The notes under the pieces are model-generated. The model worked only from the letters and a program-made list of their open reading frames with translations. It was not told where the DNA came from and did not search any database. Positions 62,009-64,000 of a stretch of 64,000 nt of DNA are shown here, in pieces. The position numbers and the translations under genes were made by a program. Every line of letters starts with the position of its first letter. Within the stretch, counting starts at the first letter, position 1. Source of the stretch: a virus; IMG/VR virus record IMGVR_UViG_3300046455_000477, positions 11,330-75,329 of that record; one strand, 5' to 3'.

Positions 62009-64000
62009 CGCGGGTGCCTCTGCAGGAAGGATCGTCGGTTGCGCACGCGGCGGGGATCATGTTCCTCACTGACGACAGCCAGGTCCTCCTCCTGAAGCGG
62101 GGGAACGGCAGCGATCATCCGGGGAAGTGGTGCTTTCCCGGAGGGCACCAGGAGGAAGGCGAGAGCACGGAGGAGGCCGCCAAGCGCGAGGCGATCGAGG
62201 AGCTGGGGTTCCTACCCCCCGGTCCGCGGGCCGTTCTCACCCGAAGCATCGCCGATGGTGTGGACTACACGACGTTCCTGCAGCGCGTGCGTAGCAAATT
62301 CATTCCGGAGGTGGACGGCGAGCACACTGGCTTCATGTGGGTTGCGCTCGATCAGCTCGGGACCGCAGCCGACCCTCCGGAGGACACGGAGGTGCGCGCC
62401 GATCCCCCGATTCGGGGGGACGAGGAGGACTTCGACGAGTCAAAGCATCCCCGCGCTGCGGACGGTAGATTCGGTAGTAAGGGCGGCGCGGGCGGCGGTA
62501 GCCCGGTTAAGGCGCGCAGGGGGCCGATGGTAGCGGCACGATACGAGAACAAAACGTTCGTGCATCACGAGTCAGGCGAACCGCTTCCCGAGCACGTCCA
62601 GAGGATGCGGATCCCCCCGGCCTGGAGGGAGGTCCGCGTTTCCATGGACCCCAGCGCCGACGTGCGGGCGACGGGCAAGGACGCGAAGGGTCGGCCGGTC
62701 GGCATATGGTCCGACAAGTTCATGGCAACGAAGGCCGCCGAGAAGTTCGGGCGCGTCCACGAGTTGCTGGAGAAGTTCGACGGCATCCGGAAGCAGAACG
62801 CCGCCGTTCAGAAGTCGGATGATCCGCGCAGGAGGGACGCGGCGGACTGCCTGTCCCTCATAATGGAGATGGGCGTTCGGCCCGGAAGCGAGAACGACAC
62901 GGGGGCCAAGGAGCAAGCCTACGGAGCAACGACGCTCCAGGGTCGGCACGTTGTCGTGGCCGGGAGGAAGGTTTCGCTTCAGTTCGTCGGGAAGAAGGGC
63001 GTTCGCCTGAATCTCCCTGTGCCAGACGGACCGCTGGCGGCCATGCTCGTGAAGCGGATGGGGGCGGCTGGCCCGGACGGCAAGCTGTTCCCGAATACCA
63101 ACGACAAGCATCTTCTCGCCCACGTTCACACGATGGACGGAGGCGGTTTCAAGACGAAGGACTTTCGCACGCGGCTGGGAACGGCGACAGCCTACGAGAT
63201 GGTGCGGTCCGGAGCACCCCCGATCTCAGAGGAGGACTACAGGCGGCGGGTGATGGAGGTCGCTAGGGTAGTATCGGAGAAGCTCGGTAACACGCCTGTG
63301 ATCGCCCTGCAGGCCTACATCTCCCCAACGGTTTTTCACGAGTGGCGCGAGCACCTGGATGATCACGCGCGGGCGGACGACTTCGACGAGTCCAAGCATC
63401 CACGCGCGAGCGATGGAAAGTTCGGGAGCGGCGGAGGAGGTGCGCGCGGTGCGGTGAGGTCCGCCACGAAGAAGGTGGCCGGAAAGGTGAAGGGCGCGGC
63501 CCGAAGCTTCGGGCACGAGGACCACGAGGTCATCGCTCATCACTTCTCGGTGGTGCGTCCCGAGGACCGCAGCCGGATCGCCCACGGGATACACTCGGCA
63601 GCCCGGATGCTTCCGGCGCTGCTGCGGACGCACCTGAAGGAAGAGAAGCACAACGCGGTTCACGCCGCCGGAGCGCTGCGAGCAATAACGACGGGCAAGC
63701 GCCCGACGCCCGAGCAGATGAAAGGGCTCAAGGCGTTCGGGATGCGCATCGGGATGATCGGGGGGTCGCTGGCTATGGGCGATCCGTCGGGCCTGATTCA
63801 CCACGGCGTCAGTGCGGCTCTCTCGCACATCGGGATGGACGCCATCATGCACATCGCGGGCGAGCACGCCCTGGCGGCCATGACTGGGCTCGGTAAGGCT
63901 ATCGGGATAAGAGGTATGGCGAGCGCTGCAGCCGACGCAGCCGACGATGTGAGCGACGAGGACACGGAGCTCCTGCAGAAGTTCATCGAGGAGCTTGCGA
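62005..64000 (+). CDS. Multidomain head-region polyprotein: Nudix, type IB topoisomerase and further domain(s); 3' end outside window; not in ORF track
   Basis: Frame checked codon by codon with no stop from GTG 62005/62014 to the window end. Nudix box GGHQEEGESTEEAAKREAIEELG; Topo IB motifs IPPAW, GVRPG, YGATTL, FVGKKG, KDFRT, LGNT, QAYI. Confidence 0.9.
   Translation, partial: MTRVPLQEGSSVAHAAGIMFLTDDSQVLLLKRGNGSDHPGKWCFPGGHQEEGESTEEAAKREAIEELGFLPPGPRAVLTRSIADGVDYTTFLQRVRSKFIPEVDGEHTGFMWVALDQLGTAADPPEDTEVRADPPIRGDEEDFDESKHPRAADGRFGSKGGAGGGSPVKARRGPMVAARYENKTFVHHESGEPLPEHVQRMRIPPAWREVRVSMDPSADVRATGKDAKGRPVGIWSDKFMATKAAEKFGRVHELLEKFDGIRKQNAAVQKSDDPRRRDAADCLSLIMEMGVRPGSENDTGAKEQAYGATTLQGRHVVVAGRKVSLQFVGKKGVRLNLPVPDGPLAAMLVKRMGAAGPDGKLFPNTNDKHLLAHVHTMDGGGFKTKDFRTRLGTATAYEMVRSGAPPISEEDYRRRVMEVARVVSEKLGNTPVIALQAYISPTVFHEWREHLDDHARADDFDESKHPRASDGKFGSGGGGARGAVRSATKKVAGKVKGAARSFGHEDHEVIAHHFSVVRPEDRSRIAHGIHSAARMLPALLRTHLKEEKHNAVHAAGALRAITTGKRPTPEQMKGLKAFGMRIGMIGGSLAMGDPSGLIHHGVSAALSHIGMDAIMHIAGEHALAAMTGLGKAIGIRGMASAAADAADDVSDEDTELLQKFIEELA

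Follow-up and report, generated by a model that had tools for sequence, protein, structure and literature searches.

The DNA examined here encodes a 16-residue peptide repeated between the enzyme modules of a phage head-operon polyprotein, and this peptide belongs to a very widespread tag that was found in no domain library or paper searched. The tag heads enzyme modules encoded beside, or fused to, phage portal and head-protease genes, and thus it probably marks cargo which, by inference from sequence and gene context, the phages would carry in the capsid, cut apart and deliver to the host. The window, i.e., the whole 64,000-nucleotide stretch analyzed, covers positions 11,330 to 75,329 of the IMG/VR record IMGVR_UViG_3300046455_000477, a viral record of 75,329 bp with a 127-bp terminal repeat. 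The features given below with window coordinates lie on the plus strand.

The observation made in the preliminary description was confirmed, and it proved to be understated. Translation of 62395-63426 gives RADPPIRGDEEDFDESKHPRAADGRFGSKGGAGGG ... HARADDFDESKHPRASDGKFGSGGGG, exactly as described, with tag copy 1, DFDESKHPRAADGRFG, at 62428-62475 and tag copy 2, DFDESKHPRASDGKFG, at 63379-63426. Pfam places NUDIX at aa 36-145 and TopoIB at aa 219-453 of the ORF that starts at 61942, such that both copies sit in inter-domain linkers, at the Nudix/TopoIB and TopoIB/third-module junctions, respectively. The R-A/G-D upstream of each copy and the Gly-rich stretch downstream are both present. Read across the record junction, the ORF is 1177 aa long, or 1138 aa from the likely ATG at 62059 (the listed ORF opens at the GTG at 61942), and it continues beyond the window into record bases 1-1602. 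It contains a third copy, DFEEGKHPRASDGKFA, at aa 719-734 (record bases 223-270), while the next ORF (record 1583-3265) contains a fourth, degenerate copy, DFDESKHKRANDGKFA. The core HPRxxxGx[FWY] occurs three times in the six-frame translation of the genome, all in this one ORF, whereas 200 mononucleotide shuffles gave a mean of 0.25 and a maximum of 2. Copies 1 and 2 share 14 of 16 residues but only 77% of bases, with six synonymous codon differences, and the four copies are 67-77% identical in DNA. The earlier suggestion that selection acts on the peptide thus holds.

The head module opens with the large terminase at 57277..59049 (Pfam Terminase_6N, E 6.3e-12), followed by the portal protein at 59310..60821 (Phage_portal_3 family, PF06381, E 2.2e-12), which carries no tag here, although relatives fuse tag plus cargo to its C-terminus (tagged portals in L020 and L028, two of the tag-bearing loci, which are designated L below). 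A MuF-like head-morphogenesis protein of 284 aa (phrog_324, E 2.2e-30) is encoded by a separate gene at 60823..61677. The cargo polyprotein follows at 62059..63999, and then come its paralogue, the protease-scaffold gene (record 3466-4989), a phrog_6268 protein and the major capsid protein. Within the polyprotein, the Nudix hydrolase module (62047..62376) matches Pfam NUDIX at 68.7 bits against a gathering cut-off of 21.1, and an intact Nudix box (GX5EX7REUXEEXGU), GHQEEGESTEEAAKREAIEELGF, was read from its translation. Candidate protease sites, R-A-D (62395-62403) and R-G-D (62413-62421), precede tag 1 within 62395..62421, and a Gly-rich spacer (SKGGAGGGSP, 62476..62505) follows it. The type IB topoisomerase module (62596..63300) comprises an N-terminal domain and a catalytic core (Topoisom_I, 67.4 bits against 23.7; Top1B_N_bact, 31.3 against 27), and a Tyr in ALQAYISP lies where the catalytic Tyr is expected, an assignment that is inferred from position alone. 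A candidate R-A-D site (63370..63378) precedes tag 2, which is followed by the Gly-rich spacer SGGGGA (63427..63444), and phrog_30637 matches aa 476-503 in this region. The third module (63445..63999) is a His/Gly/Ala-rich, partly hydrophobic helical region with no family match, which runs off the window. Beyond the window are located an acidic linker, R-D-D-A, tag copy 3, a helical module, a Pro-rich stretch and a C-terminal HEAGH domain.

The distribution of the tag was examined by profile searches. A profile of 13 tags finds 3099 protein-cluster representatives at E<=1e-3 and 311 at E<=1e-10 among 1.84e9 proteins, with up to 18 copies in one protein. In IMG/VR, 168 confirmed stretches gave 78 loci. 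Local HMM scores are bimodal, and hits at >=12 bits number 128 on the coding strand against 1 on the other. The tag occurs in (pro)phage head modules of about ten bacterial phyla, although the phylum assignments rest partly on metagenome bins. Its consensus is (A)-(D/E)-[W/F]-D-E-S-K-H-P-R-x-x-D-G-[K/R]-F followed by a Gly/Ser spacer. Over 485 unique tags, conservation reaches 96% for E+2, 98% for H+5, 92% for P+6, 99% for R+7, 97% for G+11, 94% for F+13 and 98% for W/F at position 0, and the Gly/Ser run is likewise general, with positions +14 to +19 being Gly/Ser-rich. The tag acts as a header: inter-tag spacing is 126-607 aa, and at least about 60 aa follow the last tag, apart from one ORF cut by a contig end (in the representative set the 5th percentile is 129 aa). 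Fourteen proteins carry the tag within 15 residues of their start, for example MAN followed by WDESKHPR.

Despite this abundance, Pfam and NCBIfam have no family for the tag, and a PDB sequence search gave only a chance hit at E 7.6. Only phrog_30637, a PHROG profile of 1119 positions and unknown function, overlaps it. Literature searches on the motif itself, on polyvalent, portal and packaged proteins and on capsid targeting gave no description of the tag, and neither did text searches inside Iyer et al. 2017, Jamet et al. 2017 and PMC9503650. In addition, tblastn of the tag, of a portal-tag-cargo C-terminus and of a six-tag protein found no cultured phage that carries it, and the polyprotein of the window hit only distant TopoIB genes.

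The genomic context of the tag is that of head assembly. Tagged ORFs carry Phage_portal_3 (16 of 79 tagged ORFs), Phage_portal_2 (4), Portal_Mu (3), DUF2213 (3), XkdF protease or Mu-like_Pro. The tag joins cargo to portals of four Pfam families and to head proteases. The cargo includes ADP-ribosyltransferases, NUDIX, TopoIB, RNases, kinases, LPD3, PBECR1/3, Zeta toxin, ART-PolyVal, ddrB-ParB and SAM lyase, and the neighboring genes are TerL, portal, MuF-like, head protease and major capsid protein. The modules between tags are shuffled freely. Of 692 homologous module pairs, only 40 keep a homologous next module, while 652 have a non-homologous one, and 17 order inversions were seen. The TopoIB module of this phage is stand-alone and tagged in loci L007, L062 and L058, and is fused to a portal through the tag in L026. 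L060 also carries tag-TopoIB, after a long N-terminal region for which no identity was assigned.

The residues that precede the tag vary with lineage. In the lineage of this phage, [R/K/Y]-x-D lies mostly 3-5 residues upstream of the tag, and [RY]-x-D-[AS] precedes 14 of 14 tags, mostly with R/Y at -5 and D at -3, shifted by a residue in 5 of them. Copy 1, however, fits this rule poorly, since its R-A-D is followed by Pro and its R-G-D by Glu. Another lineage uses A-Q-D-A-[ED] in that place, and lambda-like phages use A-x-[ML]-A. The [R/K/Y]-x-D motif is about 7-fold enriched in the protease-scaffold protein of this phage. This protein has 8 [RY]-x-D-[AS] sites in 508 aa, against 1.06 per 1000 aa genome-wide, whereas TerL, portal, MuF and the capsid protein have none. 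With a slightly broader form of the motif, 75 homologues show 6.8-fold more sites than residue shuffles, and all 75 exceed their shuffles. Two sites recur widely among 74 full-length homologues, Q-A-R-A-D-S-V in 55 and I-Y-A-D-A in 39. Likewise, AQDA is 6-fold enriched in the proteases of the other lineage. The repeats of RxD[AS] in the scaffold could nevertheless be structural rather than cut sites.

The N-domain of the protease-scaffold protein (record 3466-4080) has a predicted gp21 fold. Its AlphaFold2 model has a pLDDT of 90.8, Foldseek gives a probability of 0.99 to 1o6e and 5jbl, and VIA-align matches T4 gp21 (5jbl_A) at Z 10.6, rmsd 2.8 A over 130 of 165 residues, with the next hits (Z 7.7 and below) being herpesvirus assemblins. 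As regards a catalytic Ser/His set, H88, S138, S140 and H172 are invariant in 65 sequences, in terms of sequence conservation alone, without superposition on the gp21 active site. The gp21-like SPN3US protease cuts after A-X-E with Ser preferred at P1' (PMC10052503), and that site has the same form as [RKY]-x-D followed by A/S.

We propose that the working unit is a cassette of four parts: a lineage-specific head-protease site, the universal tag, a flexible spacer and the enzyme. In this phage, the polyprotein (Nudix - tag - TopoIB - tag - hydrophobic module - tag - helical/HExxH module) and its shorter paralogue would be built into the procapsid, whereupon the predicted gp21-fold prohead protease, encoded two genes downstream, would cut after the Asp of the [R/K/Y]-x-D sites lying a few residues before each tag. 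Each released enzyme would therefore begin with the tag, which would stay on the mature protein and serve as the common handle by which free cargo is held inside the head and/or led out with the DNA into the host. The analysis itself establishes the motif, its distribution, its header position, its head-operon context, the fusions to portals and proteases, the shuffling of modules, the lineage-specific pre-tag motif shared with the protease-scaffold protein and the protease fold, the latter from a model, whereas packaging, delivery, the cuts and the binding partner of the tag are inferred. We consider this explanation about as likely as not. Several findings weigh against it. The tag is nearly identical across phages with four portal families, several protease families and different capsid-protein families, and across hosts from about ten phyla, which is hard to reconcile with any lineage-specific capsid receptor. 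Moreover, Nudix is usually fused directly to the protease with no tag, so that cargo does not strictly need it. None of the tagged proteins of this phage has a recognizable anchor domain that would indicate a loading route, and AlphaFold2 gives the isolated tag only moderate confidence (mean pLDDT 70.6), with a short turn and a hairpin-like bridge.

The interpretation offered in the preliminary description, a portable tag composed of a cleavage site and a capsid-interior targeting signal, which would also offer homology for cassette exchange, is partly supported. Portability is supported, as the same tag heads unrelated modules in thousands of proteins. Cleavage near RxD is supported only indirectly, by the upstream motifs, their enrichment in the protease-scaffold protein of each lineage and the predicted protease fold. 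Capsid-interior targeting is supported by context alone, namely the head operons and the fusions to portals and head proteases, and it differs in one detail from the original picture and from T4, in that the tag lies downstream of the putative cut and would remain on the mature cargo. Homology for cassette exchange is not supported at the DNA level in this genome, yet the tags do mark where modules are exchanged.

Short N-terminal packaging signals have precedents. The capsid targeting sequence (CTS) of the T4 internal proteins IPII/IPIII (Mullaney and Black 1996, as cited in PMC9958956) is likewise a short N-terminal peptide that can be moved to foreign proteins, acting in a phage with a gp21-type prohead protease, whose cargo is injected with the DNA. 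There is, however, no sequence likeness, and the CTS, of about 10 aa, lies upstream of the cut and is removed, is confined to T4-like phages and is a single N-terminal copy, whereas the present tag lies downstream of the candidate site, spans four portal families and about ten host phyla and also repeats inside polyproteins. In phage P1, the N-terminal 30 residues of DarB, a giant multi-enzyme anti-defense protein, suffice to send a reporter into the capsid (Gonzales et al. 2022, PMC9024508). This signal, which has been shown by experiment in one phage only, has no published consensus, and the present tag, whose packaging role is inferred, shows no likeness to it and is repeated internally.

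The polyprotein also resembles the phage-type polyvalent proteins and the portal- or MuF-fused effectors (Iyer, Burroughs, Anand, de Souza, Aravind 2017, PMC5512222; Nudix and ART fusions in PMC9503650), in which several unrelated effector domains lie in one polypeptide encoded among virion genes, with fusions to portal and head protease, and for which proteolytic release has been proposed. NUDIX, TopoIB and at least two further modules lie in this one ORF, among virion genes. It carries none of the hallmark families (MPTase, LPD, ART-PolyVal, PBECR and others) at Pfam E<=0.1, and its HEAGH domain matches no family, while tagged relatives carry LPD3, PBECR1/3, ART-PolyVal and ddrB-ParB. Those papers describe the domains, not a junction peptide. 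MuF, the commonest anchor in that literature and the N-terminal domain of the MuF polymorphic toxins (Jamet et al. 2017), is a separate gene here. Phage_Mu_F is not among the families listed for 146 tagged proteins, and none of 54-56 MuF-family ORFs in tag-bearing loci carries a tag. MuF as a universal receptor is likewise not supported, since only 56 of 105 tag-bearing loci show a MuF-family gene and lambda-like head modules appear to lack one, although many of the loci are short and this is not an exclusion.

In the giant phages (SPN3US gp245, PhiKZ; PMC10052503, PMC5694885), gp21-like head proteases cut capsid-internal and ejected proteins after a P3-x-acidic motif (A-X-E) with a small P1' residue, and the motif is also dense in the propeptides. 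There the cut sites have been measured and the removed parts are N-terminal propeptides, whereas here the [RKY]-x-D sites are inferred and a conserved tag follows each one. The cargo-loading peptides of encapsulins are short conserved peptides on a flexible Gly/Ala/Pro linker that load unrelated enzymes into an HK97-fold shell. They are mostly C-terminal, hydrophobic and uncut, bind the shell protein and bear no sequence likeness to the present tag, for which shell binding has not been shown.

Phages inject enzymes with their DNA, but outside T4 and P1 it is not known how cargo is selected. A sequence-defined tag present in thousands of protein clusters would give a simple rule for predicting which enzymes uncultured phages carry in their heads, here ADP-ribosyltransferases, Nudix hydrolases, a type IB topoisomerase, RNases and kinases, as well as a cut-site-plus-tag grammar for how giant polyvalent proteins may be taken apart. 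If it proves sufficient for packaging, the tag would be a portable handle for loading chosen proteins into phage particles in laboratory strains. A further possibility, which we regard as unlikely, is that the tag is a universal delivery signal independent of phage lineage, kept at the new N-terminus of every enzyme freed by the head protease and read by something common to all tailed phages or all bacteria, such as the portal/tail exit channel, the packaged DNA or a host chaperone. In that case, any enzyme cassette carrying it could move between unrelated phages of at least ten bacterial phyla and still be carried and injected.

Among the alternative explanations, the one that survives best, although we consider it unlikely, is a host-side or ejection-side signal, whereby the tag does nothing during loading but is the handle by which each delivered enzyme meets something conserved in all bacteria or all tailed phages, such as a chaperone or unfoldase for refolding after passage through the tail, the DNA itself, or the portal/tail channel during exit. 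The near-invariance of the tag across phages whose portals, proteases and capsid proteins are unrelated in sequence, and across hosts of about ten phyla, is itself unexplained, and it points to a partner more conserved than any phage head protein. Furthermore, the tag lies on the mature side of the putative cut and would persist after head maturation, and cargo fused directly to the protease needs no tag to get in. On the other hand, the tag is not known to match any binding motif, and stand-alone tagged proteins have no other visible way into the head.

A pure processing junction, in which the 16 residues are themselves the recognition element of the head protease or of the C-terminal HExxH domain and serve only to cut the polyprotein into enzymes, is less likely still. 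The tags sit at every module junction, both tagged proteins of this phage end in an HExxH domain, HExxH is 2.7 times more frequent in last modules than in other modules, and autoprocessing of polyvalent proteins by metallopeptidase domains was proposed by Iyer et al. 2017. Yet only 35 of 236 tagged proteins (15%) have HExxH in the last module, on which ground this domain was rejected as the universal processing enzyme, and the domain of this phage has no match in Pfam, PHROG or PDB and no homologue except its paralogue. Tags also occur 3-12 residues from the N-terminus of stand-alone proteins, where a cut would serve no purpose. The head-protease families differ among tag-bearing phages while the tag does not, and the residues that vary with lineage are those upstream of the tag, not the tag itself.

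It is improbable, on present evidence, that the tag is a self-associating sticker, whereby stand-alone tagged cargo would co-assemble with tags anchored on portals or proteases into a multivalent mass at the portal. Self-recognition would explain the lineage-independent invariance, the multivalency of up to 18 tags and the frequency of portal-tag fusions, and the tag is predicted to form a small hairpin-like turn, but this phage has no anchored tag on its portal, MuF or protease. The least likely reading, that the tag matters as DNA microhomology for cassette exchange and the peptide is a passenger, draws on the coincidence of tags with the borders of exchanged modules but is disfavored by the 5-6 synonymous differences per 16 codons, by the longest exact run of 14 nt between copies 1 and 2, and by conservation at the residue level across about ten phyla with very different G+C content. 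Ni/Cu-type S-x-H self-cleavage and an EF-hand-like loop were considered from the sequence and dropped, as Ser at +3 is only 59% conserved and the spacing does not fit an EF-hand. An N-degron exposed after the cut was dropped as well, because the predicted new N-terminus would be Ala or Ser, not the aromatic residue.

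The region 62395-63426 translates exactly as had been reported in the preliminary description, and the observation on which that description rested is upheld and extended. The peptide DFDESKHPRAADGRFG lies at 62428-62475 and DFDESKHPRASDGKFG at 63379-63426. Pfam places NUDIX at residues 36-145 and type IB topoisomerase (TopoIB) at residues 219-453 of the ORF that opens at 61942, and both copies therefore sit in linkers between recognised domains. The viral record, of which the window covers bases 11330-75329, is 75,329 bp long with a 127-bp terminal repeat, and when the ORF is read across the record junction it comprises 1177 codons, or 1138 from the likely ATG at 62059. 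The 127-bp direct repeat (window 63873-63999, equal to record bases 1-127) falls inside this ORF, such that the record is probably a circularly permuted or circular assembly opened within this gene, rather than a genome with true physical ends at this point. The ORF contains a third copy of the peptide, DFEEGKHPRASDGKFA, and the next ORF has a fourth copy with Lys in place of Pro, DFDESKHKRANDGKFA, followed by a helical stretch that is 57% identical to the one after copy 3. The core HPRxxxGx[FWY] occurs three times in all six frames of the genome, all three in this ORF, compared to a mean of 0.25 in shuffled sequences. Copies 1 and 2 share 14 of 16 residues, yet differ at 6 synonymous codons, and the four copies are 67-77% identical in DNA.

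The tag is very widespread. A word-based search with the 45 residues around copy 2 returned portal-fused and multi-tag proteins with almost the same peptide. A profile built from 13 copies was then searched against 1.84 billion cluster representatives, and 3099 proteins were found at E<=1e-3 and 311 at E<=1e-10, with up to 18 copies in one protein of 7334 residues. IMG/VR gave 168 confirmed stretches, of which 78 loci were kept, and every ORF of these loci was scanned with an HMM of the tag. The scores were bimodal, whereby 128 hits at >=12 bits fell on the coding strand and 1 on the other strand. A single strict pattern, applied to one genome per species, found 27 loci. Judged from record titles, most of which belong to metagenome bins, these loci come from Bacteroidota, Planctomycetota, Clostridia, Actinomycetota, Chloroflexota, Armatimonadota, Spirochaetota, Kiritimatiellia and several proteobacterial classes. 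In one high-G+C actinobacterial contig, from Oerskovia merdavium (positions 1-12300), at least five weaker tag matches (16-26 bits) lie in a row of short ORFs, some in overlapping frames, which may represent an array of small tagged proteins or may partly be a frame artefact. The logo of 485 unique tags reads (A)-(D/E)-[W/F]-D-E-S-K-H-P-R-x-x-D-G-[K/R]-F-G-S-G-G-G, in which E, H, P, R, G and F stand at 92-99%.

The tag always precedes another portion of the protein. Inter-tag spacing is 126-607 residues, and at least about 60 residues follow the last tag, apart from one ORF cut by a contig end; in the representative set, the 5th percentile after the last tag is 129 residues. Fourteen representatives begin with the tag within 15 residues of Met, for example MAN followed directly by WDESKHPR. 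Conserved domain cores start a median of 44 residues after a tag and end a median of 42 residues before the next one, so that the tag sits in the middle of a linker. The isolated 40-mer, folded with 135 sequences, has a mean pLDDT of 70.6, with 76-81 over the core, and the model shows one helical turn and a hairpin-like bridge, which is predicted local structure and not a domain.

Two sets of tagged proteins were scanned against Pfam, comprising 79 non-redundant ORFs from IMG/VR and 67 short cluster representatives. The structural partners fused through the tag are portals of the Phage_portal_3, Phage_portal_2 and Portal_Mu families (with Phage_portal, PF04860, next door), DUF2213, the XkdF-type S78 protease and Mu-like_Pro. 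The modules behind the tags are ADP-ribosyltransferases, NUDIX, TopoIB, LPD3, PBECR1/3, Zeta toxin, ART-PolyVal, ddrB-ParB, GNAT, a PI3/4-kinase-like domain and SAM lyase. Neighbouring genes are the large terminase, portal, a MuF-like head-morphogenesis protein, a head maturation protease and the major capsid protein. In one tag-bearing locus with no recognised portal or MuF gene (L008), a papain-family (Peptidase_C1) gene at 2984-3796 lies a few kb upstream of a three-tag ORF. MuF is the commonest anchor of head-borne effectors in the literature (PMC5512222, PMC5576092), yet it is never fused to the tag in this material: Phage_Mu_F is absent from both Pfam tallies, and none of 54-56 MuF-family ORFs in the loci is tagged.

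In order to examine portability, tagged proteins were cut at their tags and the resulting modules were compared. Of 692 homologous module pairs in which both partners have a next module, the next modules are homologous in only 40, and seventeen order inversions were seen, for example between the tagged proteins P0007 and P0008. The modules of this phage show the same behaviour. Its TopoIB module (window 62596-63300) is a stand-alone tagged protein in three of the tag-bearing loci (L007, L062 and L058) and a portal-tag-TopoIB fusion in another (L026), while L060 carries tag-TopoIB after a long unidentified N-terminal region. Poxviruses package a TopoIB in their virions, whereas a capsid-borne TopoIB is not known to have been reported in phages. 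The Nudix module is usually fused directly, without a tag, to the N-terminus of the protease-scaffold protein, an arrangement shown by most of the 120 best of 1231 homologues. In this phage, the protease-scaffold protein with the predicted gp21 fold (record 3466-4989) lacks the N-terminal Nudix domain, which has instead moved to the front of the polyprotein. In close relatives, the slot between MuF and the protease gene holds TopoIB, ADP-ribosyltransferases, Nudix or an M90-like peptidase.

The residues before the tag vary by lineage, while the tag does not. In the lineage of this phage, 14 of 14 tags are preceded by [R/Y]-x-D-[A/S], with R/Y mostly at -5 and D at -3, shifted by a residue in 5 of them. 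A second lineage has A-Q-D-A-[E/D] in this place, and lambda-like phages have A-x-[M/L]-A. The same motifs recur in the protease-scaffold protein of each lineage. The protein of this phage has 8 [RYK]-x-D-[ASGD] sites in 508 residues, compared to a genome average of 1.06 per 1000 residues, and its middle part holds tandem R-R-D-A-A repeats, whereas terminase, portal, MuF and capsid protein have no such sites. With a slightly broader form of the motif, 75 homologues have 6.8 times more sites than residue shuffles, and every one exceeds its shuffles. Two sites recur widely among 74 full-length homologues, namely Q-A-R-A-D-S-V in 55 and I-Y-A-D-A in 39. AQDA is 6-fold enriched in the proteases of the second lineage, and the loci that carry it include those whose tags follow AQDA.

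The N-terminal 205 residues of the protease-scaffold protein of this phage fold with a pLDDT of 90.8, and the model matches the T4 gp21 capsid assembly protease at Z 10.6, with an rmsd of 2.8 Å over 130 residues, well above the herpesvirus assemblins that follow. Invariant His88, Ser138/140 and His172 would suit a Ser/His active site, as judged from sequence conservation alone. The gp21-like protease of phage SPN3US cuts after A-X-E and prefers Ser at P1' (PMC10052503), and [RKY]-x-D followed by Ala or Ser has the same form.

The most likely mechanism is that of a cassette of four parts: a protease site tuned to the resident head protease, the universal tag, a Gly/Ser spacer and the enzyme. 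In this view, the polyprotein would enter the procapsid and the gp21-fold protease would cut before each tag, whereby every freed enzyme would start with the tag. Since the tag lies on the mature side of the putative cut, it would not be a removable propeptide like the T4 CTS (PMC9958956), and its job should therefore come after maturation, whether to hold free cargo in the head, to lead it out with the DNA or to act in the host. This cut-and-carry reading is held with moderate confidence, as likely as not. The motif, its distribution, its position ahead of modules, its head-operon context and fusions, the shuffling of modules and the upstream motif shared with the protease-scaffold protein are established by sequence analysis, and the protease fold by structural modelling, whereas packaging, cutting and the binding partner of the tag are inferred. 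The near-invariance of the tag across four portal families, several protease families and about ten host phyla argues against a lineage-specific capsid receptor, and keeps in play a universal partner, which may be the exit channel, DNA, a host factor or the tag itself. The earlier proposal of a portable tag, made of a cleavage site plus a capsid-interior targeting signal, is supported in part, with loading, retention, exit and host-side roles all remaining possible.

The type of protein is already known, in the form of polyvalent proteins and portal-, MuF- or protease-fused effectors, including Nudix and ADP-ribosyltransferases (PMC5512222, PMC9503650). Packaging signals have been shown by experiment only for T4 (PMC9958956) and for residues 1-30 of P1 DarB (PMC9024508). 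What differs here is the tag at the junctions of such proteins, for which no description was found in any library or paper searched.

The third module of the polyprotein (window 63445-63999, continuing into record bases 1-150) is His/Gly/Ala-rich with amphipathic or hydrophobic helices (GMRIGMIGGSLAMGDPSGLIHHGVSAALSHIGMDAIMHIAGEHALAAMTGLGKAIG); it has no family match, but similar modules follow tags in the locus L033 and in the tagged proteins P0004 and P0005, and it might be membrane-active, for example as part of an ejection conduit. The polyprotein and the next ORF both end in a paralogous domain of about 230 residues (record 868-1599 and 2620-3265), with HEAGH/HEFGH and shared EMFA[DN]YVSL motifs. 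This domain has no match in Pfam, PHROG or PDB and no homologue except its paralogue in the searches run, and is possibly a new metallopeptidase family. Two overlapping small ORFs on the plus strand (window 61675-61842 and 61839-62009; about 55 and 56 residues, both below the 60-residue ORF cut-off) lie between the MuF-like gene and the polyprotein. Each would encode two strongly hydrophobic segments (MNLILVIVIVLLILGF..., MSIGLLFWVIFVIAILFGF...), and small membrane proteins of this kind are unexpected inside a head operon.
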